Below are positions 32,381-61,896 of a stretch of 64,000 nt of DNA, one piece after another. Each line of letters opens with the position of its first letter. Positions within the stretch are counted from its first letter, which is position 1. The notes under the pieces were generated by a model. It made no database searches. It was not told where the DNA came from and saw only the letters and a program-made list of their open reading frames with translations. Location of the stretch: the IMG/VR virus record IMGVR_UViG_3300050336_000170, positions 1 to 64,000 of that record. One strand, given 5' to 3'. Position numbers and translations under genes: made by a program. This DNA comes from a virus (Duplodnaviria > Caudoviricetes).

Positions 32381-32401
32381 GATTTTGTATTATATCAAAT
32401 A

Positions 32402-33760: not shown

Positions 33761-33954
33761 TTTTGTCTCCTTCTTTCTGTTATTTATTTCTCTTACAAGC
33801 TTCAAACCATTCGACAATACCAAAACGATATATAACGTCCGCTGTTCTAATGACATCATCAGTATCATATTTAGAAAATGTTTTCCTGGCTTCTAACTCA
33901 TCAATTTCGTATTCTCTCTATGACTTATAATTTATACCCAATGAAAATACTATT

Positions 33955-36900: not shown

Positions 36901-37085
36901 CACCAGCTAGGTCTAACATATGCTTTATTTCCACTTTCAACTTTTTGCATTTCAAGTACTTTGTTTGTTATAGAGCAAATTCTATTATAGCTATATTGAC
37001 CTTCTAAATAACTCAATTTACATTTTGCACAGTTATCTGGAATTCTCTTTAATTTCGTTTCTGCAATAATCATATTCCTCACCAA
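33955..37085 (-). CDS. Run of small hypothetical ORFs, many CxxC zinc ribbons
   Basis: 34280..34588, 34581..34853, 34920..35168, 35360..35587, 35628..35897, 35911..36315, 36655..36849, 36882..37085. Confidence 0.65.
34851..34892. promoter_or_regulatory. Tandem NrdR-box-like motifs
   Basis: CAATATGTTG (34851) and CTATATGTAG (34883), 32 bp apart, upstream of a zinc-ribbon ORF with acidic tail (34581..34853). Confidence 0.5.
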
Positions 37086-37094
37086 ATCTTACTT

Positions 37095-37976
37095 TTATCG
37101 ATTGTGTTCTTTCATCCATTGCTGAACATACCATAGCTGTCCACAACCACCACCTATGTCATCTTGACCATCAGGGTTAAATACCCTTGTATTGTATCCA
37201 TGCTCAATAAAGTACTGCGTGAACTTATTTATCTCGTCTAAATTCTTATATCCTGCATCCTTCATGGTTTCATCAGCACTACAGACTACGCTAAAAGTAA
37301 AATTAAAAACAGCAGGAGAAAACATCATATATAATTTCAAGAAGTCTCCATGTTTATTGTTTATTCCATCAATACAATAGTTAAGGTAAGGTTTACGTCC
37401 AGTCTCTTTCCACCACATCATACCTGCGTCTCTCAACTTGTATAAACTCATTTTGTTTTTAAATGGAATAAGCTTATCTCTATCAAAATCATTTGATTTA
37501 TGTATTGAGAACTGTAATCCGACCTTATCTATATCTTTTGATAATTGAATTATTCCTCTGTATGCCACATCATCATCAACACCAATTGTTGATAGTAGAA
37601 GCTCTGCATTAGGGTACAAAGTATGTAATCTTCTAACAGCCTCTTCAACATTGTCCCAATTAAGCATAGGTTCTCCCATGCTCATGAACATGATCTGGAA
37701 TCGCTTCCCTCTTGAATTGACATTTTCGATATCTTTATCGTATAGGACTGTTTTGATTTGATCCACAATTTCTTCATCAGTCAAATTTCTAATGAATCGT
37801 TTTCCTGTACCACAAAAACTACATCCTACAGGGCAACCGCTCTGTGTAGAACAACAGATAACTGTTCTTTCATAGTAATCGCCGTATTTATATAATACTG
37901 TCTCAGCAACATAATCATTTTCTGCGAACACATACTTAGATACATTACCTTCGATACTTTCAAATACTTTAAACAT
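37095..37976 (-). CDS. RlmN/Cfr-family radical SAM RNA methyltransferase (lacks the N-terminal domain)
   Basis: ICCSTQSGCPVGCSFCGTG (CxxxCxxC), RNLTDEEIVDQI, MSMGEPMLN, SIH, DIGGGCGQL (resolving Cys). Confidence 0.88.
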   Translation of the reverse strand: MFKVFESIEGNVSKYVFAENDYVAETVLYKYGDYYERTVICCSTQSGCPVGCSFCGTGKRFIRNLTDEEIVDQIKTVLYDKDIENVNSRGKRFQIMFMSMGEPMLNWDNVEEAVRRLHTLYPNAELLLSTIGVDDDVAYRGIIQLSKDIDKVGLQFSIHKSNDFDRDKLIPFKNKMSLYKLRDAGMMWWKETGRKPYLNYCIDGINNKHGDFLKLYMMFSPAVFNFTFSVVCSADETMKDAGYKNLDEINKFTQYFIEHGYNTRVFNPDGQDDIGGGCGQLWYVQQWMKEHNR

Positions 37977-39817
37977 TATTACTCCTTATAAAATAGCCAT
38001 TCTATCAATTACACTCTTCATTTTCTTCAAGCATCTTTGTGTATTTATCAATTGCGATTTTTAATTGTGATCTATGAATTTCAACATACTGTCTATAATA
38101 TTGAGTGTCCTCTTTTAATAATCTTTCTTCTGCATATTTTAGATTTCGTTTTAAATTTCTAATTTCATCAATAATATAGTTTTCCAAAGGCTTAGTATTA
38201 AACTCTATTGTATAATTTGTTTGCCTAACAAAATGTCTTTCACAATTTCCGCAATAATCTTCCTGCCAATCATCCTGACCTCCGTAATCTTCAGCTTCTA
38301 CGTAATTTTTATGTCCACAATACGGACATACAGCTTCAGACTCATAGGAACAAGCTAAATCATCGTATTCTTTTGGTTTAAGCTTTTCTAAATCTATTGC
38401 CATTTTCTATTTTCCTTTCTTAATTCACTATGAAATAATCTTTCTATCGGTTTTTTATCTTGTCAATAATTTTTAATATTGCAATCAAATCTGCTTCATA
38501 TTCTGATATAGTTTCTGCACATGCTTCAATATAAAACTCTTTACTATTTATGTTGTGAGTCTTATACCAAAGCAAATCTTCTCTTTGTTCGTTTATTTTC
38601 TCTTGTATATAATTCTTTTCCTTAGTCAAACTTGCATGAATATATCTTAATTCTTCGTTATCAAATTCCATATAGATTATTCCTTTCATATATATTTCCA
38701 ATCCTTAAACAGATTATTGATTTTGCCCATACACTCTTTTCTTCTGTTCCATTCCTTTTTACCATGTAGTAATATTCCTAATTCATTTACAGCTTCTTTA
38801 TCATTACTATAACCTACCATATCTAGATGTCTTTGTAATTCTATTATCCTACTATATTTGTTTTGTTTTCGATTAGATAATGAAGCAATAATAGCAACTA
38901 ATAGACAACCTATACCGATTCCTACTATACTACTAACTATTTGTAATATAATGTGATTCACAATATCACTTCCTTATAAAATATCATTTTCATTGCCACC
39001 ACAATGTATAGCTATACTTCGCACCTACTAGACCACCAGTGAATTGAATATCGTTATCTTTCAACCAGCTCCAGACATCTCCTGAATTAAAAATTATAGG
39101 ATAATCGTTCTTAAAATCGCAGATGTCTACAATATCCTTACCATTAAAAGCTGTCTCATATAACAATTTTTGTAGTTTGTTATATTCCAGTCTTGTTTTT
39201 ACTGTTTTTGTTATGTTTTTTAACTCTTCTCCTAGTTTCAATTTTATACCTCCTAATGAAATGCAAGATTGGTTTATTAAATTTCTACTTCAAAATCTTC
39301 TACTTCTTCTGTACTAACCAGATCAGATTCTCCGTATGCAAAATCATCATCTTGCCATTTTTGTTCTGCTTCTTCTTCATTATCAGCCTCTACATAGTAG
39401 AACGAATTTACTGTGAGCTTATATTTTTTCATTTATATATTTCCTTTCATACAATAAAATATTTATTACTTTCTTTTGCCTTCACTACAATATTTCATAA
39501 TACGGTTTACTGAGTATCCACTATCAGTCCAATCTGATTTTAAAGCGCATGGACAATTTTTATCATATTGGTATTGACACTCAACACAATATACAATATT
39601 TTGTGCTTTTATGATTAATTCTTCGATATCTTCAAATTCACCTAATGATTTATATTGAGCTAATTCTAGTATATTAACAAATCTTTCTGCATCTTCAATA
39701 ACAACTGGTTCAGTCCATCCGCATTGTCTACATATGTTACTATGAAAGTATGGATCATATGAAGCTGTTCTGTGGCATATTGGACAAGTCATATTTTGCA
39801 TCTCCTTAAATCTGTAT

Positions 39818-39846
39818 TTGACATATGTATAAAATAAATCTATAAT
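39818..39846 (+). promoter_or_regulatory. Consensus sigma-A promoter
   Basis: TTGACA-17-TATAAT. Confidence 0.85.
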
Positions 39847-39906
39847 GTGTATACTTCTAATATTCTCAATGATATAACTTACTTAACGAAAGGAATGAAT
39901 AATAAT

Positions 39907-40191
39907 ATGGCAAAAGGTAAAACTCCGTCAACCAAAGACACTATTGTAGAAAAAGTAGGTAGAAAATTTAGACCCCTCCCAGAGCGTCTTGCTGAAATAG
40001 ATAAGAAGATTAAATTTCATCAAGACACAATTGATCGTCTTAACACCAAAAAAGCAAAAATGATTAAAAATGCTACTAATGAAAAAGAGCAAATCAAAAC
40101 GCTGAAAGAGAAGCTTGAGGCAAAAGGCATGAGCATAGAAGACTTGCTCAAGAAGATTGATGAAACGCCTGTTACAATAGTATCCGAATAA
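39907..40191 (+). CDS. Small basic coiled-coil protein, the only convincing plus-strand gene
   Basis: Own promoter, SD GAAAGGAA, ATG at 39907 and terminator; Lys-rich heptad pattern. Confidence 0.8.
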   Translation: MAKGKTPSTKDTIVEKVGRKFRPLPERLAEIDKKIKFHQDTIDRLNTKKAKMIKNATNEKEQIKTLKEKLEAKGMSIEDLLKKIDETPVTIVSE

Positions 40192-40200
40192 TATGTATTT

Positions 40201-40232
40201 GAGCTTGTGGCAACACAGGCTCTTTACTTTTT
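40201..40232 (+). terminator. Intrinsic terminator
   Basis: GAGCTTGTG-GCAA-CACAGGCTC followed by a T-rich tail. Confidence 0.8.
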
Positions 40233-41589
40233 ATTTCCGAAATAAGTACCAACAGCACATCCAATTGGTGCAACCATGATAAATACAACTAGACAGGATA
40301 CATCCATGTATACTATGCTACTTTTATCAAAGTACATCCAGAATGCACCTACAATTGCGCCACTAAACAATGCTATATACGAACTGCTTAATATATTCTT
40401 TTTAAGTGCTTGAAAGTATTTTTTCATAATCTTTACTCCTTTCCTGATGAATCTCACAATTGGTTGTGAAATATTGCAATCCTACGGTCATTTAAATAAA
40501 ACCAACAACCGTCATATTTCATTCCTTTTTCGTCTACATAATAAGCAGCACCATTTGGGTGTAATCCAAACTTATCTTTCAAACCACGTATAATTGCAAT
40601 AAATTTAGTGTGTTTCGATCCTCGTTGTTCTAATTCAACGAATAACTTCCAAACTTCTTCTAAAACCTGATTTACTAAAAAATAATATTCTGTTCTCATC
40701 AATTCCCCTAATCAAAATAATCTTTTATTTGTTAATCAAAATCATCAGACGCAGTACATCTAACGGCTTTGCACTTGTTACATCTGTATATTTTGCTTAC
40801 ATATGTAATTTCAATTGATTCATTTATAAATTCCCACTCATGGTCACATTGATTATATATAATTGCTTCTTCGAAACCTTGCATAATCTCGTCATAATGT
40901 TTACTCATATTAAATTCCTCATTATATCTATTGATTTATTACCTTTTAATCACAGAAATCGTCTTCATCAAACACTATATTTATTTTAATTCCAGTGTTT
41001 TCATCGTGTTCATCTTCATTATCTATACGATCATAGATGTCGTTTATATTTTCAATAAGAAATATGTTATCTAATTGTATAACCAGATATTCATCACTAA
41101 ACCAATGTTTCATTTTCACAAATAGGTTCTTCCTCACCAAACGCGCAATTTATCGACATAACAAGCTTTTAAGTTTTGGGATTTCTTTAAGTTCCCAAGA
41201 ACAATTTCGGTGCTCTATTGCTTCTATCTCTTTTAAGACGTATTCTTTTGCTTTCTCTACAGTCTGTTTCCATGTATAAGGATAATTTAATATTTGGATT
41301 CCGTATTCACAGACTGGCAGTTTTCTTAAAATTGCACTCGCTACTCTCAAAGCCGTTTGATAATCATATGTATATTTTGTGTCACCATAATACTCAACTA
41401 ATCTAGTAGGTACATAATCAACACCATCGTTAATACAATATGAATACTCAAGGTTATCCACAGCTTGCATATGCAATACTCTATATTGATCTTTAAACTT
41501 CATAATATATACGCCGTTATCTGCACTCATGGAATTAAGCCTCCTTATCAAATCTACATTTGCTTGTGATTTGTTTTATATATTTTATA

Positions 41590-41810
41590 TATGTCAGTCC
41601 AACCACCACGTACCGACACGCCTACTCCTGAATATTATGTAGGATACCTCTTGCCTTTTAACCATGCAGACAAATCGTAGTGTTTATTAATAAGACAATC
41701 ATATTTATCACTCAATTTATGATTGAATTTACCGCTATTCCCCACTGTTATTCACGATATGCCCCAACATGTAGTTGCCTTTCGGCATTAAATGTAGTGT
41801 GGTAAGGCAA
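41590..41810 (-). ncRNA. Putative structured non-coding RNA
   Basis: No ORF of 60 aa or more; GC-richer; closing stem TTGCCTT...AAGGCAA (41651-41810) and a GCC-GAAA-GGC tetraloop hairpin on the minus strand. Confidence 0.4.
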
Positions 41811-42124
41811 ATGAAATTAGATATTTATTTACTTAATGATAATCCATATTCGGAAAAATCTCGTATTTCTTTTATGTAAGTATATAATATTGTATCTGAT
41901 TCAAGCCCATCACAACTATCGGCTATGCTTAATATAAACTCCAACACATCTTGCTTTGTTTGCAACTGATCTTTAACTTCTTTACATATGTTCATATCTT
42001 TATTTCTCCTGTTTATTATTAAATGGTAGCCACCTGTTCATGACCAACTACCGCTTCGTGTACTTAGAAGCATATTTATACAGGATTGTCTGGGACACAT
42101 TGTAAAGAGGTGCGACAGGTCTAT

Positions 42125-42211
42125 TGGTGTCGGTGATGCGACTCCAACGCATAAGATCATTTGATCACGGTATTTTAAGTACCGATTGTCTAGCAGTTCC
42201 AACACACCGAC
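42125..42211 (-). tRNA. tRNA-Leu(UAA)
   Basis: Acceptor GTCGGTG/CACCGAC, anticodon arm CGGTA-CTTAAAA-TACCG, long variable arm GATCA-AA-TGATC, T arm ATGCG-TTGGAGT-CGCAT, encoded CCA. Confidence 0.9.
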
Positions 42212-42285
42212 TGGCAGCGATATACTTAGTTGAAAAGTATCCTTGAGAGTCAAATTCTCACATGCTTCCGTTACACCATATCGCC
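42212..42285 (-). tRNA. tRNA-Gln(UUG), non-canonical
   Basis: Acceptor GGCGATA/TATCGCT, anticodon arm TGAGA-ATTTGAC-TCTCA, T arm TACTT-TTCAACT-AAGTA, G discriminator, encoded CCA abutting tRNA-Leu. Confidence 0.85.
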
Positions 42286-42289
42286 ATAT

Positions 42290-42363
42290 TGGTGACTCAT
42301 GAAGGTTACGCTCCTTCGTCTACTGATTAAAAGTCAGTTGCTTTACTATTAAGCTAATGAGCC
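42290..42363 (-). tRNA. tRNA-Lys(UUU), non-canonical T loop
   Basis: Acceptor GGCTCAT/ATGAGTC, D arm GCTT/AAGC, anticodon arm ACTGA-CTTTTAA-TCAGT, T arm GAAGG-AGCGTAA-CCTTC, encoded CCA. Confidence 0.9.
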
Positions 42364-42950
42364 ATATGTAATTAGCCTATACCCTACCCTCCCTATTCTC
42401 TTTCCCCTGAGTTATTACAAGCAGTCCATCCCAGACCTTCAGCGTCCTTGCTTGCCCCTTATGTAAATGAAATATTGAATCTATCTACCGTTACAAAAGC
42501 TACACCTACTAATAACTTCTCCATTATCATAAAATTCTACTAGTTTTCCGAAAAATATCTCAGGATGATTCCAATTATAATCATGATATTTTTGGTTCCC
42601 CTCTTGTGTATAATAAAATTCCTGTTCATATTCTCCATCTGGATCACGTTTAAGTTCAATCATTAACTTTATAATACCGTTTTCAAGCGGAAGCCATTTT
42701 GTCATTTCCTATACCTCCAGATAAAAGCTAGATTTTATCATTATTTTTACTGTTACTTTTATTTAAGTTATGTATATAGTTTTCCAATTGCTCACACTTG
42801 TCTTTGCCACAACATTCTTTTTTGCTACACATTGGACATATAACTAACATAGCTAATCTTAAAGCATTCTTATGTGTCATGTATTTTCTATCCCGTTTTC
42901 TTTTCAAACAATTCATTAAGTATTCTAGGAGCATATTGTTGATTTTCAAC

Positions 42951-43511
42951 TCACATAACCCTACTCATAACTCTACCATTTACAAAATCCTCAATCTTTG
43001 ATTCTAAGAATATGTTGACCATTATAGAATCATTTTTTAATTGTCTCCTATGCACCCTACAATCATGATACTGTTTAGCCATTTTATAACCCTCACTACC
43101 TCCAAACTTATCAGTAAACTCAATGTAGTGTTCTAGATCACATTTTTCCTTTTCTACTCTATCTAGTAATTGTGGTAATTTGTTTTTATACTTTATAAGA
43201 TTAGTATAGAATATTTCAAATTCCTTACACATTAAAATCCAATCATAATCACCATTATCAAATACTGTTTCTGATTCAGTATCGGGAGTATCCTGTGCTT
43301 TGATTTCAATAACTTTCATTACTATGTATTTTTCTAATTTCAGATTCGTTCTATCTCTTGGTGATATCGAATTATTAATAATATTCTGTCCACCATCATA
43401 AGAAAATTTATCTGCCTTAATCTTATCATTAGTCTTAGACCATCTACCTACTTTATCTTTATACAAATATGTGTTACCATCAGTAATCACATAGCTATCT
43501 TCGTCAGTCAT
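42951..43511 (-). CDS. Hypothetical coiled-coil phage protein, first gene after a strong promoter
   Basis: ORF with SD; CDLEHYIEF...GYK...RRQLKN segment; frame continues past the TGA to a TAG at 42888. Confidence 0.7.
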   Translation of the reverse strand: MTDEDSYVITDGNTYLYKDKVGRWSKTNDKIKADKFSYDGGQNIINNSISPRDRTNLKLEKYIVMKVIEIKAQDTPDTESETVFDNGDYDWILMCKEFEIFYTNLIKYKNKLPQLLDRVEKEKCDLEHYIEFTDKFGGSEGYKMAKQYHDCRVHRRQLKNDSIMVNIFLESKIEDFVNGRVMSRVM

Positions 43512-43591
43512 TAATTCACCACCAGTTTATTTATAATAGCATTAATCAATTAAATACTCAATGTTTTTATTTTATTTAACTTATTAATGAT

Positions 43592-43620
43592 ATTATACAA
43601 GACATTTCCAATAATGTCAA
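43592..43620 (-). promoter_or_regulatory. Consensus sigma-A promoter driving the tRNA / array 2 operon
   Basis: TTGACA-17-TATAAT on the minus strand. Confidence 0.85.
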
Positions 43621-43658
43621 CACTTTTTTAATTATTTTATTTGATTAGTAATTATGTA

Positions 43659-43697: not shown

Positions 43698-44654
43698 TTA
43701 ATACCCAAAAGCTTTCTTCCACATGTTATATGCTAATTCAATGTCTTTTGCCTTTTGAGTAGCAACATATTCTTTTTTCAGTGCATACTCTTTATTTTCA
43801 ATATCCATTTCTACATATTCACTAAACGATATTGATATATTCTCTTTTTCGAGTTGATACCACCTATAAAACAGTCCAGATTCATATACTCTAATTGGAC
43901 TCAGTTTTATATATTGTCCTGTTTCTTCTTTATACTTTTTGTTAAACGTAGTAATCTTTGCTCCAAATTGTTTTGCTCTTAATACATTTGTCTCTTTTAA
44001 TAATCTTAATAAATATGGTGAATCGCACAGATCAAAAAATAGCTTTTCTTTTTTAGTTCTCTTCATTAATTGATTTGATGGCACTGTTATCTGTAATAAA
44101 TACTTAAAGATTGGACTAGGGGTTATAGTTTTGTTGCTTGTTTTAATAATATTATCTTCTAAATTTACTTCATCACGCCTTAAAATAACAGCCTCTTCAT
44201 TTGTAAATCCCTCATATAGTAACCAAAAATAAATCCTGTACATATTCATAAAATGTAATTCCTCAACTGGAGGATATACAACATCTAATACGTCTGCTAG
44301 ATGTTCAGGACTTTTCAACATTTCTCGTTCAAATACATATGAGTTATCTATCTCTGATGCAGATATTAATGCTAAATGATTTTCTAGTATATTCGTTTTA
44401 CCGTTAATAATACACCAATCTACGTATTGTTTTAGTCTGCTTATATTCCATGCAATACTTTTTATATCACGGCTACCAAGTGAAGCTATACTAATTTTAA
44501 GTTCATCATAATTCATCTCTGAAATGTCTTTATCAAAATCACTTTCAGCTTTATTATATAGTTTTTTAAATAATATTTTGTAACTCTCTTTGCCTTTTTC
44601 ATCCTCATTTAAACTATTAATAAACTGAAGTTTTTGATTTTCATTATACATCAT
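43698..44654 (-). CDS. Integrase-fold DNA-binding protein, catalytic residues degenerate (SPbeta YopR/MrpR/SroF-like repressor)
   Basis: Core-binding domain (LKQYVDWC); box I reads LYEGFTNEE with no catalytic Arg and box II reads LSPIRVYESG with no HxxR; directly downstream of a DGxHR gene, as in SPbeta yopQ-yopR. Confidence 0.7.
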   Translation of the reverse strand: MMYNENQKLQFINSLNEDEKGKESYKILFKKLYNKAESDFDKDISEMNYDELKISIASLGSRDIKSIAWNISRLKQYVDWCIINGKTNILENHLALISASEIDNSYVFEREMLKSPEHLADVLDVVYPPVEELHFMNMYRIYFWLLYEGFTNEEAVILRRDEVNLEDNIIKTSNKTITPSPIFKYLLQITVPSNQLMKRTKKEKLFFDLCDSPYLLRLLKETNVLRAKQFGAKITTFNKKYKEETGQYIKLSPIRVYESGLFYRWYQLEKENISISFSEYVEMDIENKEYALKKEYVATQKAKDIELAYNMWKKAFGY

Positions 44655-45982
44655 AATTGCTCACCCCACTTTGAGATGAAGTATTTTTCAATTTTTACCT
44701 CATCTGTTGCCTTTCTCTCTATAGGTGATACCGTCTTTCTCCAATTAATAGATTTTAATAATGATTCAAGTTTATTGCGCCAGTTTAGATCATTCTCTAG
44801 TTGCTTTGATAAATAGGTGTATCCAACCCATGTCACAGCTTCAGTTGACCATTTAGTTTTTCTAGCTAGCTCATAGTCTTTAAAATCATCTATCATCACT
44901 TCGGATAGATAGTTATAAAATTCAACTAACCAATCCTTGACTTTTTGTGCCTGTGAATTTAATGAAAAACTATTAACATTATAATATTTCTGTATTGCGT
45001 TAGCTAAAGTAATTTGAACAATAAACCCTCTCTCTATCCCTGTTGTTGTTATATTTCGCTTATATACATCTTCTGCATTAGGATCAATTTTAATCCACTC
45101 AACTATTCTATTTGCATAATTACGTTCCATTGTTTCTTTGTGTCTAGTATTTGGCGGTGTAGCTTTCCATTCCTGAGATATCATATCTTTAACTGTATCA
45201 ATATCATAGAAAGTAAAAGCTATCTCAAAATATCTATTAGCAAACAAATCTCTAAGTTCTGGATAGTTTGAATATGCATATTCTGCACCTAAAGACCTAT
45301 GATTACCGTCTGGTATAATTATATCTCCATCTTTTGGCAAATAAATGCATTTGTTTTCTTCATCATAGGTATAACTTGATAACCCATCATTGATTAAATT
45401 AAGTCTTATCATGTTGTAATGATATCTATCGTTTGCAATTTTTTCTTCAATTTCTCTTACTTTTTTCTTATTAATCTCTATTTGTTTTAATATTTCTGTG
45501 CCTTCGGAATTTTTAATTGATTTGCTTTCCCTTTGTAACTCTGGTGTTACTCTAATAATACCTTTTCTTTTTGACTCTGCCAACTGTTGAACAGACATAA
45601 TACATGAATATTGATTACTTGATAACTGCACAACGTTGTGTAGCACATAAAGATCGTCTATCTTAATATCATCTCGACTAAAGAACTTGGAATTTTTTAT
45701 TTCTACTGGAGTAAAATAATCAGATACTTTACAAACATAAACTTTTTGTTCTACTTGATTACCAATTAATTCCATTGCATAGGCAAACCAATATAACTCA
45801 AAATCTTTAAGACTATCAAGTTCAACAGATTTCATAACTAATTTCTTATAATCAGCTATTGTAAATCTTCCTTCTTGAGTCATAAAATCTTGAACTTTAC
45901 TTTTAAATTCTTCATTAGAAGAGTTAAATAGCTTTTTCTTTATTAGACTAATTAACTCTTCTCGGCTGTTTTCATTCTTCAT
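44651..45982 (-). CDS. DndB/ParB-like DGxHR-domain protein (YopQ/SroE-like)
   Basis: ELQRE..., IIIPDGNHRS motif; ATG at 45982 behind AAGGATG; stop overlaps the next start. Confidence 0.7.
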   Translation of the reverse strand: MKNENSREELISLIKKKLFNSSNEEFKSKVQDFMTQEGRFTIADYKKLVMKSVELDSLKDFELYWFAYAMELIGNQVEQKVYVCKVSDYFTPVEIKNSKFFSRDDIKIDDLYVLHNVVQLSSNQYSCIMSVQQLAESKRKGIIRVTPELQRESKSIKNSEGTEILKQIEINKKKVREIEEKIANDRYHYNMIRLNLINDGLSSYTYDEENKCIYLPKDGDIIIPDGNHRSLGAEYAYSNYPELRDLFANRYFEIAFTFYDIDTVKDMISQEWKATPPNTRHKETMERNYANRIVEWIKIDPNAEDVYKRNITTTGIERGFIVQITLANAIQKYYNVNSFSLNSQAQKVKDWLVEFYNYLSEVMIDDFKDYELARKTKWSTEAVTWVGYTYLSKQLENDLNWRNKLESLLKSINWRKTVSPIERKATDEVKIEKYFISKWGEQL

Positions 45983-46001
45983 AAATACACATCCTTTTGT
46001 A

Positions 46002-46451
46002 CTAAGCTGTGGCAAGTACTCGCTCTTCGACATTAATATACTTCTTACGCAATCTTTCTACCATCGCAATTATAGATTCATTATCCATATGAATCAAAAG
46101 TGGCGTTTCCTCTGTACATGCTTCTGCGATCTTTACTATATATTCTCTTGGAAGAGTTGTGATATACTCACCTATATCGTCTTTAGACCTGAGTTGTTCT
46201 TGCTCACATAAAGCAATGCTATCCTTAGCCAATCCACATTTTTTAGCATCTAAGAAAACGTGTGTTGGCATATAAGCTTTGTTATGTTCAGCCCCTGTAA
46301 GCGGAACTGCATGGATAATAGGACTATAACGATTTCCTATATCATTTTGTGTTATGATAGCAGGCCGCCATCCAGCTTGAGAGTGCTTGTTATGTTTATC
46401 TCTTTCAAAATAAACCATATATACACTATTCATCTTGGGAATAAAGTTCAA
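46002..46451 (-). CDS. mazF: PemK/MazF-family endoribonuclease
   Basis: HSQAGWRPAIITQNDIGNRYSPIIHAVPLT...PTHV...GLAKDSIALCEQ closely resembles Firmicutes MazF (QGGxRPxxxxQNDIGNxxSP). Confidence 0.88.
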   Translation of the reverse strand: MNFIPKMNSVYMVYFERDKHNKHSQAGWRPAIITQNDIGNRYSPIIHAVPLTGAEHNKAYMPTHVFLDAKKCGLAKDSIALCEQEQLRSKDDIGEYITTLPREYIVKIAEACTEETPLLIHMDNESIIAMVERLRKKYINVEERVLATA

Positions 46452-46501
46452 TAAATCACTTCCCTTCCTTCCTTAATTATAGAATTCATAAGTACAATAA
46501 C

Positions 46502-46530
46502 ATACTACCACAATGATTATTTGTTGTCAA
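46502..46530 (-). promoter_or_regulatory. Sigma-A promoter for mazF, DGxHR and integrase-fold operon
   Basis: TTGACA-17-TAGTAT with extended TG, about 50 nt before the mazF start. Confidence 0.7.
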
Positions 46531-46575
46531 CAGTTATTTTAAATAATTATTAAATAATATTTGACAGTTTATCAC

Positions 46576-46893
46576 TTATTCGCCCAAAGTAAGGGCGAAT
46601 AAGTGTGTGATTACGTACATTGCTTTTCTTTCTTTGTCTTCAATTATTATATCATAAGTAAAATCAGGTTTTTCATCGAAATAAAGAATTAAGTAACAAT
46701 TCCCATACTCACCTACATTATAACATTCTCTAAAACATTTAATTGTACCATTTTCTGCTTCACTTGATAACTTTTGCAAATCTTCTATCTTTATATTGTG
46801 TTTTACGCTAATTATATCTTTATTGCTATATTCAAAATCTAACTCCCATTTAGCAGGAATCTTAATTTTCTTTTCGTCACTTACTAATATCAT
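46576..46893 (-). CDS. Hypothetical protein
   Basis: ORF with SD AAGGAG. Confidence 0.65.
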   Translation of the reverse strand: MILVSDEKKIKIPAKWELDFEYSNKDIISVKHNIKIEDLQKLSSEAENGTIKCFRECYNVGEYGNCYLILYFDEKPDFTYDIIIEDKERKAMYVITHLFALTLGE

Positions 46894-46969
46894 ATAATCT
46901 CCTTCATATTATAAATTTAATGAAAATATATAATATCACGACCTTCCAATATGATATTGACTTGTCATT

Positions 46970-47512
46970 TTATACTGATCCTATTGTTGCTGCAATCACA
47001 ACAGATGTCAAAATATTTCTTAGCCAATTGTCTTTAAGTACTATGAATATATCTTGATCATAAGTACCAGACAGCCTATCCCTATCCCCTATAACAGCGC
47101 ATGGGTGAGTATTTATATGTCTGATAAAAGCATTATACAATATTTCAATTGATTTTTCTTTATTAATTCTACATGTTTCTGCAAAATTTGTTGCCTTATC
47201 AAAAAACCAATCAAGAAATTTATTTGAAGTATAGGCTCTTACTACATAAGATTTATTAATATCTTTTTTTATTTCTTCAACACGAAAAACAGAATTATAT
47301 ATACTATTATCCTCTTCTAATCCTTGGCATACTTCTTCCGATATTGTAATGTATGTAGGATTAAGACGCTTGTTAATATATTTTGCTTTGCATCTTCTTT
47401 GGACATTTTTCAACCATATACTATAAACATTTTTGCCTGTGATAGTATATATCCTATTGAGTCTTGACATTACATTTGCCAATCTCATTTCCATTGTGTA
47501 ATTAATTTGCAT
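46970..47512 (-). CDS. Hypothetical basic protein downstream of antisense-RNA module
   Basis: SD GAAAGGAAG followed by ATG (MQINY). Confidence 0.65.
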   Translation of the reverse strand: MQINYTMEMRLANVMSRLNRIYTITGKNVYSIWLKNVQRRCKAKYINKRLNPTYITISEEVCQGLEEDNSIYNSVFRVEEIKKDINKSYVVRAYTSNKFLDWFFDKATNFAETCRINKEKSIEILYNAFIRHINTHPCAVIGDRDRLSGTYDQDIFIVLKDNWLRNILTSVVIAATIGSV

Positions 47513-47555
47513 TAATATGATACTTCCTTTCAAAAACTTTAGTATAAATTTTTAC

Positions 47556-47688
47556 TTGAAAAGAAGTCTTAGATATATTATAATCAAAAACTGATATTGA
47601 TATCTGAGGCTTCAAATCAGATTAAATGTCCCTAGTAAGACAGACTGTAACTTTGGACGGTGGCAGTCTGTTTTACTTTCTTACTTTT
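47556..47688 (+). ncRNA. Antisense small RNA A (promoter plus two hairpins)
   Basis: TTGAAA-17-TATAAT (47556-47584); hairpin 47591-47620; terminator AGTAAGACAGACTG-loop with CTTTGGACGG-CAGTCTGTTTTACT followed by Ts. Confidence 0.65.
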
Positions 47689-47706
47689 GTTGAAAAAGAC
47701 TATCAA
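47632..47706 (-). CDS. Putative 24-aa leader peptide MIVFFNKSKKVKQTATVQSYSLSY
   Basis: SD AGGAGAGG then TTG; runs across the complement of the RNA A terminator. Confidence 0.4.
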   Translation of the reverse strand: MIVFFNKSKKVKQTATVQSYSLSY

Positions 47707-47724
47707 AAAACCCTCTCCTATATG

Positions 47725-47832
47725 TTTACAAATTTTTACTAATGATGTATAATAATAGCAATTCAGGTGTTGGCTAGACACTTGGAGGCTGGCATGGGCT
47801 ATCTATATTTTTATAGGTAGCTCATGTTTTTT
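47725..47832 (+). ncRNA. Antisense small RNA B
   Basis: TTTACA-17-TATAAT (47725-47753); hairpin CAGGTGT..GACACTTG; terminator GCATGGGCTATCTATA-TTTT-TATAGGTAGCTCATGT followed by a T run. Confidence 0.65.
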
Positions 47833-48049
47833 AAATTGAAAATTCCTTGATAAACTCCTCCCTTGTCATCGTATTTGTTTTTCGGATCACCAATGCGTAA
47901 TATTCCTTTTGCTTTATTCCTGTGTCAATACACCACTTCTTAAAATTCTTATAGTCCTCATCGGGGATTCTGACCGTAAATCCTGTCTCAATAGATGTTT
48001 CGGTATTTCTCTCTATATTACCTTTTTTATCAATATTTGACACCCCCAT
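47831..48049 (-). CDS. Ribbon-helix-helix (CopG/Arc-like) regulator, probably leaderless
   Basis: FTVRIPDEDYKNFKKWC...GIKQKEYY RHH pattern; ATG lies about 6 nt after the -10 of TTGACA-16-GATAAT (48056-48083) with no SD. Confidence 0.6.
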   Translation of the reverse strand: MGVSNIDKKGNIERNTETSIETGFTVRIPDEDYKNFKKWCIDTGIKQKEYYALVIRKTNTMTREEFIKEFSI

Positions 48050-48059
48050 AAAAATATTA

Positions 48060-48421
48060 TCACCAAATCACCATTTTTGTCAATTTTATCTAAACATAAT
48101 AATAGCAAAAATTATTATGTGATTTTTGTAATATATTATGCTTTTGGTATTTATCTCTTATGGGGAAGGAACAGCCAGATCAGACCTCCAATCACTGATA
48201 ATAGTATTGTCCACAGTGGAGAAATAACAGCCATAACAGGGATTACGATAAATAGTAGAGGACTTACACCACTTGTCTTTTCTGTATTCTGCTTCATGTA
48301 TACACCTATCCTTCACTAATACGAATGATAATTGGATATCCTTGCATAATTAATAGATTATTTTTAGAATTTTGTAGATTTTTTGTATTATATAAATAAA
48401 CTACGAGTCACCAAATCACCA
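48060..48421. repeat. Two copies of TCACCAAATCACCA (candidate RHH operator)
   Basis: 48060-48073 (inside the RHH promoter) and 48408-48421. Confidence 0.7.
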
Positions 48422-48942
48422 AGTAAGTATCATTTTGGTCTCATTTTTATCATTTGTCCAGATAATTGTCGTAGAGTGCAAAAAATGTAGCGTAGTTTAC
48501 ATGTTTGACGCTCTAGCTGTAACCTACATATATAGTATATCAAATTGCTTAATTAGTAAAATCTGATATTCGTTCAAATTTGATGTTTTTATTTTTTGAA
48601 TTTGAAATTTTGTACTAGTTAATACCATTCCGTTCTATTCTATACTATAATTCGCATGTTAAGTTTTAGCTTATCTTTGTTTTTCTTATATTTGCTCTTG
48701 ATTGCTTTGTTTTTCTTGAATTTATAAGTGAAATAACAAGTTTATTATACCATCATATCAATATCTGAAAAGTCTCGATAACGCTCATAATATCTATTTT
48801 TCACTGGTACTAGTTTTTATGTTAATCAACATACATTAATGAAAATTTATATACGTTTAAATTATTCTAATATACATTGAAATTAAATTGTAATACAGTT
48901 GATTTTTGTAAGATTATTTTTAAAACACGATCTCTTATTTTC

Positions 48943-49377
48943 TTAGATTTCTTTAATTTTAATTATGATTGATGCTATAATACCCGCAATAAGAGAAGGA
49001 ATTACTGAGAATACAAGGAAAATAAACAGAGAACCAAGAATAAGCCATATTGTCAATTGTTCTTGAAAGAATATCATTCCAATAATTATTGTTACTATAC
49101 TACCTATTACCGTCACTGAAAACATAGAAATAAAAATATTGAATGGTGCTTTGATTTCTTTTATTACAGAATAAATTAAGCTTGAAATAGTTAAAACTCC
49201 TATAGTAATAAATGATATTATATATTGGCTTCTTACTGTATCGGTATTAGCATTTTGGAAATCTTTTATAGCTATTGGATATATAAGAATTGACAAACCT
49301 GCGGCAATAAATGGTATAAGTGAAGTGAGACAATCAGCGTCTTCATCGAATCCGATAATCGCAAGAATGAACCTCAT
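48943..49377 (-). CDS. Integral membrane protein (about 4 TM)
   Basis: Hydrophobic segments; ATG MRFILAII behind AGGAGG. Confidence 0.7.
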   Translation of the reverse strand: MRFILAIIGFDEDADCLTSLIPFIAAGLSILIYPIAIKDFQNANTDTVRSQYIISFITIGVLTISSLIYSVIKEIKAPFNIFISMFSVTVIGSIVTIIIGMIFFQEQLTIWLILGSLFIFLVFSVIPSLIAGIIASIIIKIKEI

Positions 49378-49411
49378 ATAATATCCTCCTTTAAATTTTT
49401 CGGAACCAAAT

Positions 49412-49670
49412 CTAGGTTTCATTAAGTATTTTTTCTATGTCTGATTTACTATACATAACATGCTTGTATATTACATAGTCACCATCTAACTGACATAACA
49501 CATCTGATAATACTTCTGTAGCTTCAAATAAATCAATCCATCCCTGATCCTCTTGGCAGACTAAACTTCCATCCCTACTATCAATCCAAACATGACTACC
49601 AGTTTTAAGAGTATGATTCCCATTTACTACTTTATAAACTTTGTCTGGAATTAAATCAAAAATATAACAT
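49412..49670 (-). pseudogene. Frameshifted small gene (ATG TTA TAT TTT TGA; +1 frame open for about 80 codons)
   Basis: Strong SD AAGGAG and ATG, stop after 4 codons; +1 frame DLIPDKVYKVV...KILNET ends within the junction palindrome at 49405. Confidence 0.5.
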
Positions 49671-50252
49671 TTTAATTCTCCTTATAAAATTATAGGTTTA
49701 TTGCCATTCTAATTTCTGACCACAATACGGGCATCGTTCTAAAGAGTATGCCCTACTTATATATCCATCATCATTCTCTTCATATTCATAAAATAGAGCC
49801 TTACATCTTGGACATTTAGAATTAGTCCACGCTTCTTGAATAACTGTCTGAGGTTTATTTATATCTATTAACGCCTGTTCATAACCCATATCATAATCTT
49901 TTTTACTCATCGTTCACCTCACAAAAACCTGATTTCATTGTTTTTCAGTAAAATCACTTTGAACATCGCCCAAATGATTAATCATGTTATCAAGTTCAAC
50001 ATAAATTTCACCACTTATTGAATTTATTATTTCTTCTGCTGTTTCACCTTCAAAATAGATACATATTGTCTGATTACCATATGGCAAGAGTGTGTCAATA
50101 TATCGTTTGTTCCAATGAATTTTCTTAATATAAACTTCACCATTATCTAAATAAGGTGCAAAATGGCTTAATACTTCTTCATTTATTTCTCTTTTCATGC
50201 TTTCCTTTCCTGACCAAATCCCGAATTTATCGGGTTACAAAATTGTAACCTT

Positions 50253-51458
50253 TTATGCTACTCGCGTAGACAACGGATGTAAACCTACACCCTCTACCCC
50301 TTCCGCAAAAGCGTTAGGGAATACCTTCATCATTATTTGATAACTACCATTTACGTCAGCGTTAATAATGTGGTCTATTGATTTGAACAAGCCTCTTGTT
50401 ATTCTTCTTGACTTGTCATAGTTTTCTTTACACGGCACTTCACCACTTAAAAAATCTGTACCACTTGTGTACGATTCTTCAGTTGTTATAAACCTAATTC
50501 CGACATTCTGACATTTATACTCTAGCTGCTTTATAAACATTTCATACGGAATAGAAACAAACTTCTGATTAGTTTTCTTACTCATTGCAGATTCTTGTTT
50601 CCATCCCGAATTATAACCGCATACTAAAGTATCTATATCGCTTTCTAAACACAACCTTACTATAAATTTACTTGCTTTATGCATCCAATCTTTAATCTTA
50701 TTATTACGTTTTGTGGTTAACTGCTGTAGTTTGTTACTCCAATGTTTACTGTTCTTTAACATGAGTTCTGACTGTATCTTTGCTTTCTGCTTATTGTAAT
50801 ACTGATTATAAGACTTGATTACGTTACCCTTAATAGCAATAGGCTGTATACCTATGTTATTTGTAATAGTTGCAAAGTTATCAATGCCCAAATCAATACT
50901 TGCTATATTATGAGATTCTGTCGGCTGCTCCGGTATATCGATTTCATAAACGATCTCCATGATATAGTTACTTCCATTCGGTATAAAACGACACTGCATG
51001 AGTTTACCTTGTACTTTTGTTGGAACACTATATCCTTTAAATGGTTTAAAACTTATACGGAATACTTTATCATTGATTGAACATTGAATATTTTTTAGAA
51101 TAAATACCTGTCTACCATCCTTTGCTTTGTATTTAGGCAGTTTTGGTTTGCCTAAGTAACTATCTTTGTGTTTTGACCAATCTTTGATTGCTTTAAAATA
51201 TGAGTTCCATGCTCTATCTAGAAATTTCAAAATATTTTGTGATGCCTGTGACCCTAATTCTTTATAACAATCGGCATTTTGGCACATGTGATCAAGTTTA
51301 TTGTATCTAATCCATTTTTTATTATTAATAAATTCTTGCCTGATCAAATAGTTAGCATAATTATATACGTTCTTTGATCTAAAACAGTATTCATCAACAA
51401 TTTTCCATATTGGATTAGATTCTTTTATTAAATGTCTCTCTGTTCTATTTACTTTCAT
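50253..51458 (-). mobile_element. tnpB: IS200/IS605-family TnpB without tnpA (IS1341-like)
   Basis: SKNVYNYANY, KLPKYK, RuvC-I SIDLGIDN, GYNSGWKQ, EESYTS, RuvC-III INADVNGS, tail AEGVEGVGLHP; hairpin GGTTACA-AAAT-TGTAACC at 50232-50250 just downstream. Confidence 0.92.
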
Positions 51459-51465
51459 GAATTAC

Positions 51466-51578
51466 TTGCAATAAATAAGTCTATACTATAAAATACAAGT
51501 GATAAGACCTACCCAAAAGAAGTCTTGTCTTGTAAAACAGTTGCAATCTTTGGACGGAGGGCGACTGTTTTACTTTTT
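51466..51578 (+). ncRNA. Antisense small RNA C upstream of tnpB
   Basis: TTGCAA-17-TAAAAT (51466-51494); hairpin GATAAGAC..GTCTTGTC; terminator GTAAAACAGTTGC-loop with CTTTGGACGG-GCGACTGTTTTAC followed by T5. Confidence 0.65.
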
Positions 51579-51707
51579 CTGTTCTTCCTTCTGAAGATAC
51601 TCGCTACAAGCAAGTTTAATCAAGGCAGCGGGGGTTATCCCTTTTATCTTAGCCATATCAATAAGACGCTTGTAGAGATCATCAGGAATATCAAGACTCC
51701 TTTTCAT
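51570..51707 (-). CDS. 45-aa CopG-like ribbon-helix-helix protein (not in ORF track)
   Basis: MKRSLDIPDDLYKRLIDMAKIKGITPAALIKLACSEYLQKEEQKK; SD AAGGAGG; promoter TTAACA-17-TATATT with GTTACA/TGTAAC boxes. Confidence 0.8.
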   Translation of the reverse strand: MKRSLDIPDDLYKRLIDMAKIKGITPAALIKLACSEYLQKEEQKK

Positions 51708-51821
51708 GCACCCTCCTTTCTGTAACCTAATATATACCTTTTTTGTTACATTGTTAATAGTTTCCTTAAATTATTGTCCAGATATTTGACGATCAAATTC
51801 CGTTTTTATTGCCTATTTACT

Positions 51822-54800
51822 TCATAACATATGTGATATATATTTCTTTTCAGCATATGTCAAATTTTCAAATAGTGGTCTGTATTTTTCATCTAATCTT
51901 ATAATTTTTTCAATTTGTTCATCTACTTGTGATACAACTTCATTTTTATAAGAATCATCGAAATATTTTGACATAAGTAGACATTCTCTCCTATCCTTAA
52001 TATCGTAAACATTTCTATATTCATTCCCATTAAATACTATTTCACGTACCATATCTTTTACGTCTTTTTTCGTATTATGAAAATGTCTTGAAAAATTTTC
52101 TACGTGATCTATATTTCCACCAGCATAATATTTTGAATAAAATTCTTTACCACATGAATCACATTTCATTGTAACACTCATAACCTTTTCTCCATTCAAA
52201 TCAAACATTTATCGTTATTTAAACTGAATAATATCATCATACACTTTCTTATCATATGTTATAAATTCTACATCTCGCTTACCTAGTGCCGTAAACCATA
52301 CGTGAAACCCCTCTGGTGCATCTATATGATACTGCATTTGCCAGATACGATAATTATTGTCAATCAATTTTTGTTTAATTTCATACCATTCTGCTACTGA
52401 TTTAAGGTCTTTCAGTAATACCACCACTTCCAAAATTGTTTTCTTTAAGACTATTGTACTTGTGGGCATTTGTTTTTTCAATATCAAGTTGAAAATTCTA
52501 CTTGCACACAAAAAGCGAAGTTTGTGAAGTTGTAGATAGTATACTGCTACACATTTATTACGTCAACCCGTTTTATTGGACAGTGATTTTTAATCGCTAA
52601 TTATCTGTATATCGTTTATGATTTTTTCACTAAATCCAACATCTTTTAAAAATTCTTTGAATTTATCTAGTAATATAGGCATTGTGCATTGTTGATTGTC
52701 ATCGATTATTGAGAATAACTTTTCATATTTAGCACCATTGTTGAGTTCACCTTTGAAATAAAAACATACTGTATACATTTTATCACACTCCTAGCAATAC
52801 AAATGCTTTTATCATTTGTAATAATTTTAAATGTTCAGGTTTTTCATCTCGCATTAACTCAGAATTAATTTGCATTTCCAAATCAACAAGTTCTTCAAGA
52901 TCATCAATGCATAACTTCAATTTATCTCTTGCATTATACTTTAATTCATCAATTTTACATGATGATGATAATATCGGAACGTAAAACATTTATATTCTCC
53001 TATATCATTAAGTATCTTTCTTCTCGATAATAAGCAATATCCTTGTAGAATTGTCTATCTGCTTTAGATTCACTATATTGACTGCAAGGATAAAAATAAG
53101 CACAACCATCATAAACATCTCGCCAATATTCTGTTACAATACCGTCTGGTGTAGTATGTTTAACCTTTGTCATATTCTTGACCTAGCCTCCATTACAATT
53201 TGTCTTGCTCTTCCCTCAGAGCATTTCATAGTCTTAGCCAATCCTGCTATTTTACGGTCTTCACTATAATAGCTTTTATCTAAATAACATATTGAACAGT
53301 ATTTGTTACCGTTTTCATCAATGTATTTTACTGTATGACCACATTTACATTTAACACCTTTTCTCATGCTAGGAGGAATAATGTCCATCATATCACCTTT
53401 CATATCTATTACTAATTTATTTTAATTGGCTTATACTCTATGTATACAAGCCTTTTGGCTTGTATTTCTAATACCCCTTTCTATATACTTTCTTGAGGTA
53501 TTTATAAAGTTTATTTACAAAGTGATAGACTGTATAGCCCATACACATATACGCAATAGCATTATATAAATCAAGCGAATTGAAGTATATATATCTTAAA
53601 AGTAATGTTACGTAAATCCAAACACTAAGAGATAGGATTCTCGCCTTTTTCATGAGTATCAACTCCAAAATATATTGTTTACTCTTTTATCATTCCCCAT
53701 TTCTTTTAAATAATTCACTCAATTTAGATTATCGCTTTCAATTAAATAGTAACTATAATGATCATCATCAAAAAACTTCATTATATCGTAACCTTTTTCT
53801 TGCAAGTTTGTTTTACTGTCACTTACATATACTTTATCAATATCTTGACCATTCTTTTGTAAATCTTCAATTACTGATTCATCAAAACCCCATTTTCGTA
53901 AAGTAACTTCAATATCTTCTTGTATAGAGTCAGTTAATTCAATAGTTGGCTCTGCTACAATATCTGCAAATTCATGTAATACTCCATACCCAAGCAATGC
54001 AGTTGCTATTAAACCTGCTGTTGTTATACACCCTGCAACTCGATAAGCTTTCAATTCCTCTCTAGGATTTGTGCATTGCCTCATTGTACCTAATGCAGAA
54101 CAACTTATTACTGTTTCTCCATTACCGTCTAATCCTCTTGATCTACATAACATACAACGTTTACATTCTGGTTTATCATAAAAAGAACATTTATATACAT
54201 AAACCATTACTATACACCTCTTAAATATTCATTCTAATTATACTGCCTTTTCTATCTTTAGTCTACCACAAACTTACAAAATATTCAATTGTGAGTGTCT
54301 ACACTTTTATTATACTTATCTTATGCAATTTTATGCGCTCGCTCTTCAAACCAATCTAGTAAATTCTCATATGCCTCTCCCTCTGTATCACCAGACACTA
54401 TAAAATTACCAAGACTATCATAGTATTCATAATGATCCATTACATGACGCAAAATATAATGCACTATATCACAGTTATATACACTCATACGGTTACTATC
54501 TCCTTTTCTTTTGTTTGATATGGTCTTACCTCTATAAATCTTAATCCATGCTGGTTACATTGATTCTCAGCCTTACAAGCGGCATTATAGATATCATAGC
54601 CATCTATCATAAAGTTATCATACCGGCCTGTACCATCCTGCCTACAAGCAGAATAATAAAACAACAATCCATTTTTAATTAACTGATTTATATTTATAAT
54701 ATTATTCATACGTATTATCCTTCCCGTAAATTTTTCAATGCTTCATTACAAATGCTAACAATTACGTCTTCTGCTTCTTGTGTCGTGATATTATCACTAT

Positions 54801-57314: not shown

Positions 57315-57340
57315 TTTTTATATAACCTCCAATACTTTAT

Positions 57341-57892: not shown

Positions 57893-58039
57893 GGCTTTGC
57901 TCTTGTTCCTGTATATCCGTACATATCACAGTATGTTGGTATGTTTAGATAAGCAATTTTAAATAGCCATTTTGGTACAGATATGAACTTCCCGAATAAT
58001 TCAACTTGATATATTTGTGCTTTCATTTTATTTCACCTT

Positions 58040-58267
58040 TCAATAAATGGATAAAAGAGTTATTTCATCTTGTTTTAATTTCGTTAATCCTATTGGGCAA
58101 ACATCCGCAGGATAATCATGTTTGTAACAAACCATAGGTCTTTCAGACTTATAATATATAGAACATAAATTTTTATCTGTTAAATATTGACATCTAACAC
58201 CTGCTCTTTTATTTATTTCTGGAATTTCAAATCTAATACAACAATCTCCGCAATGTAAACATTTCAT
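58040..58267 (-). CDS. YkgJ-like cysteine-cluster protein
   Basis: CxxCGDCC...CxxL...CSIY...RPxVC pattern. Confidence 0.7.
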   Translation of the reverse strand: MKCLHCGDCCIRFEIPEINKRAGVRCQYLTDKNLCSIYYKSERPMVCYKHDYPADVCPIGLTKLKQDEITLLSIY

Positions 58268-61838: not shown

Positions 61839-61867
61839 ATTATATGCTGATTGTTTTGTTTTGTCTA
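61839..61867 (-). promoter_or_regulatory. Sigma-A promoter
   Basis: TAGACA-17-TATAAT on the minus strand. Confidence 0.65.
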
Positions 61868-61896
61868 GTTTATTTTATTTAATTTGTATATAAAGT

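Follow-up and report, generated by a model that had tools for sequence, protein, structure and literature searches.

A phage-borne MazF at the head of a predicted repressor operon in a large SPbeta-like provirus, and the distribution of its probable UACAUA cut site

Why would a temperate phage carry the gene of an RNA-cutting toxin, with no antitoxin gene beside it, at the head of the operon that encodes its repressor? The question is raised by the first 64 kb (64,000 nucleotides, here called the window) of the 131,585-bp IMG/VR provirus IMGVR_UViG_3300050336_000170, whose completeness is estimated at 80%. A mazF gene on the minus strand is followed there by a homologue of YopQ/SroE and by the gene of an integrase-fold repressor of the MrpR/YopR/SroF type. 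We give an even chance to the explanation that this phage-borne MazF, encoded in the phage's repressor (lysogeny-control) operon, cuts the lytic transcripts and spares the repressor message. MazF would be made together with the repressor and would cut the lytic transcripts that escape it. We base this on four findings: MazF appears intact, its linkage to the repressor is conserved, the early genes are loaded with UACAUA in a strand- and motif-specific manner, and the repressor gene has few such sites. The enrichment of UACAUA in the early genes is a firm result.

The mazF operon and its three proteins

The operon is a single unit bracketed by hairpins (46530-43650, minus strand), consisting of a promoter-like site, mazF, the YopQ/SroE homologue and the MrpR/SroF-type gene. 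From 5' to 3' the features are as follows (aa, amino acids; ORF, open reading frame):

46573..46605, minus strand: 13-bp perfect hairpin that includes the stop codon of the 105-aa ORF upstream (-22.6 kcal/mol, z -9.0; a stability reached by 0 of 200 shuffles)
46502..46530, minus strand: sigma-A-type promoter-like site, TTGACA-17-TAGTAT, with an extended -10 TG, found as a consensus match
46002..46451, minus strand: mazF, 149 aa from a TTG start (the protein database version has 143 aa, from the ATG at 46433)
44651..45982, minus strand: YopQ/SroE homologue, 443 aa from the likely start (longest ORF 44651-46033)
43698..44654, minus strand: MrpR/YopR/SroF-type integrase-fold repressor homologue, 318 aa
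43658..43692, minus strand: 14-bp hairpin straight after the mrpR stop codon (-16.9 kcal/mol, z -5.7)
43653..43658, minus strand: first coding-strand UACAUA found by motif search, adjoining the terminal hairpin at its 3' foot
43592..43620, minus strand: perfect consensus promoter, TTGACA-17-TATAAT (12/12 matches), serving the next gene (42951-43511) and the early region

A sequence-only reading of this DNA had described three tightly coupled genes here: an orphan mazF, a DGxHR gene resembling yopQ/sroE and a catalytically dead integrase-fold gene resembling mrpR/sroF. All three were located on the minus strand where it had placed them, and both family assignments were borne out by the searches given below. 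The coupling is indeed tight, as 19 nucleotides (nt) separate the mazF stop codon from the likely yopQ start, and the mrpR start overlaps the yopQ stop (ATGA). The reading had also noted that no antitoxin adjoins mazF, and this agrees with our results. The 124-bp spacer between mazF and the next gene upstream holds a hairpin and the promoter-like site and has no ORF, and the 105-aa ORF upstream of it has no MazE, AbrB or ribbon-helix-helix match. The hairpin in this region, which no U-tract follows, is a putative terminator that probably shields the operon from upstream transcription, while the hairpin after mrpR is likely to be the 3' end of the operon transcript. Promoter-consensus matches are not enriched in this AT-rich region (42 compared to 39 in shuffles). 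Searches for repeated operators (SPBRE-like) around the operon and the mazF promoter gave AT-rich low-complexity repeats, as expected of an AT-rich background, and nothing convincing. No LexA (Cheo) box was matched between 31.3 and 49.9 kb, which includes the operon, and the matches in the window were at chance level.

MazF matched PF02452 with an E value of 1.5e-16 (61 bits, cut-off 23.1) and the MazFs of the PDB by phmmer (E 2e-16). It also matched phrog_1936, the 'MazF-like growth inhibitor', a family that PHROGs classes as moron. In an alignment with Bacillus subtilis EndoA (4mdx), Arg25 and Thr48 are kept as R29 and T52; Simanshu and colleagues are said to have described the roles of both residues in catalysis in 2013. 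All 31 members of the MazF subfamily have T52, and at least 90% of them have R29. The subfamily has also conserved the motifs QN-xGN, PTHV and DS. An AlphaFold2 model of MazF had a mean predicted local distance difference test score (pLDDT) of 91.6, and Foldseek aligned it to the MazF-RNA complex 4mdx_A with a template modelling (TM) score of 0.91, a root-mean-square deviation of 1.6 A, an E value of 5e-13 and an identity of about 36%. Past the MazF core, two helices follow in the model, of which residues 117-121 form the shorter and 124-148 the longer. This C-terminal helical extension of about 30 residues marks the subfamily. Judged from its sequence and predicted fold, the protein is a MazF-family endoribonuclease whose active site appears intact. 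It belongs to a dedicated repressor-linked subfamily of which the C-terminal helix is the hallmark.

The second protein is a full-length YopQ/SroE homologue, encoded directly upstream of the repressor gene. The ATG at 45982 is its likely start, with an AAGGA ribosome-binding site and an N-terminus that agrees with those of other YopQ proteins. It matched SPbeta yopQ by tblastn (24.7% identity, E 2e-12) and by phmmer (E 1.9e-18), and phrog_5732 with an E value of 9e-46. The QR and DG-HR motifs (DGNHR in this protein) are invariant across an alignment of four sequences. The protein is DndB/ParB-like, and its match to PF14072 (DndB) is weak and below the cut-off.

The third protein matched PF22822 (MrpR_N_CB), the core-binding domain found at the N-terminus of MrpR, with an E value of 7.6e-16 (59 bits, cut-off 27), and it has no Phage_integrase match in Pfam. 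A profile made from its clade, with no Bacillus sequence in it, matched the YopR/MrpR/SroF structures 9rd5, 8bj6, 8bjv and 8a0a over positions 1-274 (E 5e-7 to 3e-4). The Arg-His-Arg positions of recombinases are occupied by E148 or a gap, I254, and Y257 or E258, while Tyr309 is kept, as in MrpR; the residues were mapped by alignment to YopR and with Table 3 of PMC10516654, and at about 20% identity single positions are approximate. The catalytic Arg-His-Arg is thus lost, in keeping with a dead integrase fold. A genuine tyrosine integrase gene is found elsewhere, at 76367-77224 of the provirus (plus strand).

UACAUA sites and the conserved MazF-MrpR pair

The MazF proteins of B. subtilis, Listeria and Staphylococcus aureus all cut strictly at U^ACAUA (bioRxiv 10.64898/2026.08.06.743204). 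All genes of the window, whose G+C content is about 29%, are on the minus strand, and the operon separates two regions:

1..43652, minus strand: SPbeta-style early/replication module identified by Pfam matches, rich in UACAUA, the proposed target of MazF
46531..64000, minus strand, running on to about 75.5 kb of the provirus: accessory region upstream of the operon, poor in UACAUA

On the coding strand of the provirus, TACATA occurs 67 times downstream of the operon (43.7 kb, 1.53 per kb), 0 times in the operon and 10 times upstream (29 kb, 0.35 per kb; binomial P 3e-8). Among 60 permutations of the same composition, TACATA ranked first for the ratio of downstream to upstream density in the provirus (4.4, with the next at 2.7 and a median of 0.9). 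The opposite strand, used as a control, was flat (0.69 versus 0.52 per kb). Synonymous-codon shuffling of the downstream ORFs gave 23.3 +/- 3.8 expected sites against 42 observed (z 5.0). For the upstream ORFs, 4 sites were observed and 7.9 expected (P 0.07), and for the operon 0 were observed and 1.6 expected (P 0.14). A comparison of motif depletion between lysogenic and lytic genes had been proposed by the sequence-only reading, and with the strict hexamer it turned out in that direction, UACAUA being over-represented in the early genes and missing from the operon. The pentamer UACAU occurs once in the operon of the window, where about 5 are expected (8% of equal-sized windows have one or none; codon-shuffle P 0.05). 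The pentamer result was considered as evidence against self-sparing, a reading that was overturned by the hexamer test.

The same pattern was found in relatives, for which motifs were counted in 36 non-redundant mazF-mrpR loci. UACAUA has a density of 0.09 per kb in mrpR, 0.31 in mazF, 2.6 in the 150-nt flanks of the operon, 0.99 in the downstream genes and 0.47 in the upstream genes. The downstream/mrpR ratio for TACATA was 9.3, which ranked first of 60, with the next at 2.5. In 32 of 35 loci, the region downstream was denser in sites than the operon (P 4e-7), and a site lies within 150 nt after mrpR in 13 of 36. Apart from UACAUA, GGACC and GGTCC are almost absent from the 36 operons and the three genes of the window (0 and 2, compared to about 13 and 15 in codon shuffles), and CTAGC and GATCG are likewise low. 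This looks like restriction-site avoidance.

The linkage between MazF and the repressor is widespread. The relatives of the window's MazF (34-47% identity) all bear the C-terminal extension, and 71 viral MazF loci have an MrpR-like gene just downstream on the same strand. The gap between the two genes is mostly -43 to +37 nt in these viral loci, and in one group (L058) a gene of about 113 aa lies between them, giving a gap of about 434 nt. When the search was begun from MrpR, MazF was directly upstream in 76 of 79 viral loci. In species-representative genomes, MrpR is directly downstream of 37 of 39 extended MazFs but of only 2 of 32 non-extended ones (Fisher P 2e-15). The hosts of these loci belong to the Clostridia of the gut, the rumen and digesters, among them Oscillospiraceae, Ruminococcus, Acutalibacteraceae and Roseburia. 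Since the MazF-MrpR linkage is conserved in well over 100 loci, the arrangement is not due to chance.

YopQ is not part of this conserved pair, and no YopQ was found near the MazF-MrpR pairs of the IMG/VR and species-representative relatives. Conversely, no MazF was found within 5 kb upstream of 12 Bacillus SPbeta-like YopQ-YopR loci. The three genes are joined in two architectures only, that of the window and that of Clostridium phage c-st. Thus, of the gene order in the sequence-only reading, the MazF-MrpR pair proved to be conserved, while most relatives lack YopQ, and the conserved partner of the MazF subfamily is MrpR. MazF and YopQ also occur, though apart, in the SPbeta-sized Psychrobacillus phage Perkons (MT325768.1), where a PemK/MazF gene (15268-15567) and a YopQ homologue (27149-28126) are 12 kb from each other.

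The phage is most likely an SPbeta-like temperate phage of about 130 kb with an anaerobic Clostridia-type host. Only one sequencing run was found to contain the stretch, that of an anaerobic digester metagenome which may be its source; no RNA run was listed for it, and no DNA-level similarity of the window to known phages was found. The early module encodes, according to Pfam, the alpha subunit of DNA polymerase III, a RecD-like helicase, DnaB-like and primase-like proteins, a PD-(D/E)XK nuclease, an AAA_24 protein, a protein like the single-stranded DNA-binding protein SSB, and an ATP-dependent ligase. Two further genes of the early region, both on the minus strand, may be nucleic-acid modification genes: 32402-33868, for a 488-aa protein with a 3'-phosphoadenosine-5'-phosphosulfate (PAPS) reductase domain, and 37095-37976, for a 293-aa radical S-adenosylmethionine (SAM) protein. 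Within the UACAUA-poor upstream region there is a TnpB/OrfB_IS605 gene (50253-51458, minus strand, 401 aa) with a Cas12f-like TNB domain. Past the window, the same arm of the provirus encodes a GmrSD_N (DUF262) protein, a DUF4942/Dam-like methyltransferase and an LPD29 polyvalent protein (68360-69421, minus strand). The structural genes are on the opposite arm.

Mechanism, neutralisers and rival explanations

In the favoured explanation, the operon would be on during the establishment and maintenance of lysogeny, so that the repressor and the ribonuclease (RNase) would be made together. The repressor would close the lytic promoters. MazF, cutting U^ACAUA like other MazFs of Bacillota, would destroy those early and replication transcripts that escape repression, which are enriched in UACAUA at the level of synonymous codons. 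The operon mRNA would be spared, as it has no site and is predicted to end in a hairpin with the first site just past it. For lytic growth, MazF would have to be neutralised by the product of a separate transcription unit. The sequence-only reading had proposed a self-contained MazF-dependent switch or a superinfection defence. It is supported in part, by the gene identities, the coupling and the motif pattern; most relatives have no YopQ, and neither aimR nor aimP was detectable.

Several results weigh against this explanation. The absence of sites from the operon is not significant on its own (0 compared to 1.6-1.9 expected), and sites are likewise missing from 13.6% of windows of equal size. 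In the relatives, the mazF coding sequence is not depleted of UACAUA (0.31 per kb, ratio 0.84), nor is the pentamer UACAU depleted in their 36 operons (87 compared to 76 expected, shuffle z 0.2). The cleavage specificity is deduced from an identity of about 36% to B. subtilis MazF and from motif statistics. The mazF promoter is a consensus match only and no proof, and the co-transcription and timing of mazF and mrpR are predictions from sequence. Finally, no neutraliser was found in this phage, and a constitutively active MazF in a lysogen needs explaining.

The candidates for a neutraliser begin with the gene next to the spacer:

46576..46893, minus strand: 105-aa ORFan, in the position that a U-family gene of about 105 aa holds in relatives

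The sequence-only reading had named this gene as a possible neutraliser, and we found no support for that. As a MazF antitoxin or neutraliser it was rejected, because it is an ORFan (only itself was found among 5.8 billion proteins) with no Pfam or PHROG match. It showed no homology to the U-family either (hhalign probability 0.65%). The U-family has no Pfam family, and in 29 of the 36 representative operons of relatives one of its genes immediately precedes MazF (for example L014:5551-5874). In one locus, a U-family gene (L239:3536-3889) directly precedes MrpR and MazF is not there. The AlphaFold2 model of the U-family had a pLDDT of 93, and its matches in the PDB were weak (PH-like, YojF and ChuX-like, Z up to 5.9); neither MazE nor YopT/Sar was among the matches listed. 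An exact LexA (Cheo) box was found near 5 of 29 U-family genes of relatives.

A second family consists of 76-aa acidic helical proteins with the motif D-N-x-P-E-N-L-Q (PENLQ) and no Pfam match. In four genomes, its gene is 12-32 nt upstream of a non-extended MazF, which is the position of an antitoxin (L161:4741-4968, L162:467-697, L164:4701-4928 and L168:1898-2125). In 62 of 80 viral loci it precedes MazF-MrpR at a distance of 0.6-2.3 kb (for example L014:3575-3805). The PENLQ protein is a candidate MazF inhibitor; the family is absent from the provirus of the window. In the window, a 72-aa ORF 1.4 kb upstream of mazF (47831-48049, minus strand) has a ribbon-helix-helix-like pattern with a short C-terminal tail and no family match.

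The arbitrium genes aimR and aimP, for which the sequence-only reading had proposed a check, were not detectable in the provirus by searches with SPbeta sequences. The AimR query had no match at E <= 1, nor by phmmer at E <= 0.1, though divergent AimR types could escape such searches and the provirus is estimated to be 80% complete. Pfam scans of large ORFs assigned no family to those of AimR size (387-427 aa). Single-sequence searches of the whole provirus gave no match to AimP, YopM, YopN, YopO, YopP, YopS or YopT of SPbeta.

A different explanation, which we consider unlikely, is that MazF and MrpR form a toxin-first pair resembling a toxin-antitoxin system. The MrpR-type repressor (or YopQ, in this phage) would bind directly to the extended MazF, possibly at its C-terminal helix, and neutralise it. 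If the repressor were then lost or inactivated, by curing or by an antirepressor, the RNase would be set free, leading to prophage addiction or to an induction-coupled shut-off. This would fit the almost perfect co-occurrence of the C-terminal extension and MrpR linkage in the species-representative genomes, and extended MazF is rarely found without MrpR, while MrpR occurs without MazF in L239 and in the 12 Bacillus SPbeta-like loci. In the same genomes, the median gap to the gene upstream is 98 nt for extended MazFs and -9.5 nt for the non-extended ones, which are usually abutted by a small gene, as in canonical MazE-MazF-like pairs. Type II antitoxins are typically DNA-binding autorepressors, and this would also suit MrpR. 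On the other hand, genes can intervene between the two (YopQ in the window, the 113-aa gene in the L058 group, two genes in c-st), and thus strict translational coupling is not required. Fused MazF forms were not found, which is weak evidence. MrpR has been reported to wrap DNA as a monomer (PMC10516654). A toxin-first pair alone does not account for the enrichment of UACAUA in the phage's own early genes. A predicted complex of a MazF dimer with MrpR scored 0.02, which counts neither way on binding.

Slightly less probable again is the more specific idea that the integrase-fold master repressor itself neutralises the extended MazF, which would dock to it by the C-terminal helix, so that one pair would couple repression and RNase. 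If this were true, an antirepressor or the loss of the prophage would free a UACAUA-specific nuclease just as the lytic promoters open, and the pair would represent a new class of repressor-toxin switch.

MazF might also serve in superinfection exclusion or anti-phage defence, which seems improbable to us. The lysogen would make MazF together with the repressor and destroy the UACAUA-rich transcripts of incoming phages, and the lysogenic genes would merely need to have no sites. There is a precedent, as phi3T and SPbeta mutants devoid of MazF inhibitors are restricted by the MazEF of the host, and the cell is not killed (bioRxiv 10.1101/2023.04.27.537455). The low UACAUA content of the operon and the upstream accessory region and the classification of this MazF family as moron would agree with such a role. 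However, defence does not account for the fact that the early genes of the phage itself hold more UACAUA than codon usage predicts (z 5.0), nor for the tie of the subfamily to a repressor gene rather than to defence islands.

It is very improbable that the fold of MazF was taken over for a regulatory subunit without catalysis, such as a co-repressor or repressor adaptor. The strict linkage to a transcription factor and the family-specific C-terminal helix would fit, and the MazF-like domain of CRISPR-Lon CalpT reportedly has no toxin function, but the subfamily has conserved the catalytic Arg and Thr as well as the motifs QN-xGN, PTHV and DS, and the distribution of UACAUA points to RNA cleavage.

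Comparison with known systems

If the favoured explanation, in which MazF cuts escaped lytic transcripts and spares the repressor message, is true, RNase-assisted repression would be ancestral or recurrent in SPbeta-type switches and not a peculiarity of Bacillus. The phage would also offer a simple test system, with one gene and one six-letter site. Host MazF is central to the lysis-lysogeny decision in Bacillus arbitrium phages. Here a whole clade of large Clostridia phages encodes a MazF that appears wired to an SPbeta-type repressor, in a phage genome that seems to be laid out around the MazF hexamer. In the literature searched we found no published description of phage-encoded MazF linked to MrpR/SroF-type repressors; the SroF preprint surveys Bacillus phages only. 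New here are the layout with YopQ/SroE that is common to the window and c-st and forms a bridge, the statistic relating extension to linkage, and the permutation and codon-shuffle controls for the hexamer.

The closest known counterpart is the sro operon (yopMNOPQR = sroA-F) of SPbeta and phi3T. MazF destroys the majority of the phage mRNAs in phi3T and spares that of the sro operon, which favours lysogeny (bioRxiv 10.1101/2025.11.27.690993; PMC10769878), and in the phi3T model AimX and YosL block the host MazF (PMC10769878; bioRxiv 10.1101/2025.11.27.690993; bioRxiv 10.1101/2023.04.27.537455). As in the window, YopQ/SroE is followed there by MrpR/YopR/SroF in the same order and on the same strand, upstream of the early replication genes, and MazF activity is tied to the lysis-lysogeny decision with the repressor operon spared. 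The two differ in that MazF is phage-encoded here and heads the operon, whereas in the Bacillus relatives the 5 kb upstream hold no MazF. In addition, no homologue of AimR or of the other SPbeta proteins searched for above is detectable here, and the identities are 20-25%. The comparison suggests that this phage may have built in a tool that the Bacillus SPbeta phages borrow from their host.

With the MazF of B. subtilis (EndoA/NdoA; PDB 4MDX and 4ME7), the protein shares the fold, the catalytic Arg and Thr, and probably the UACAUA site. Unlike in B. subtilis MazEF, there is no MazE gene upstream, the protein has a C-terminal extension of about 30 residues, and it is linked to a phage repressor. 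The MazF-MrpR pairs of uncultured phages and prophages in IMG/VR and GTDB (our loci L004-L089, L105-L146 and L188-L267) share the MazF subfamily (34-47% identity), the MrpR clade (22-29%) and the UACAUA pattern. They differ by lacking YopQ, and most of them have the U-family gene and the 76-aa PENLQ gene upstream, neither of which is in the phage of the window.

Clostridium phage c-st (AP008983 / NC_007581, 22835-27135) is the only named phage we found with the architecture of the window, having a MazF-like protein, a YopQ homologue and an MrpR-like protein encoded on one strand. Its record labels these genes only as 'PemK family' or 'MazF-like growth inhibitor', 'hypothetical' and 'integrase'. 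In c-st, an additional 218-aa gene lies between MazF and YopQ, and its MazF has 220 aa with a different, longer tail. Just upstream of MazF, c-st has the gene for a protein of 305 aa whose N-terminal domain is that of the P22 antirepressor (PF10547; L103:1655-2572). The MazF-MrpR pair in c-st-like phages bears on the unstable lysogeny of toxin-converting clostridial phages. Since both the window and c-st retain YopQ/SroE, they bridge the MazF-MrpR layout and the YopQ-YopR layout of SPbeta.

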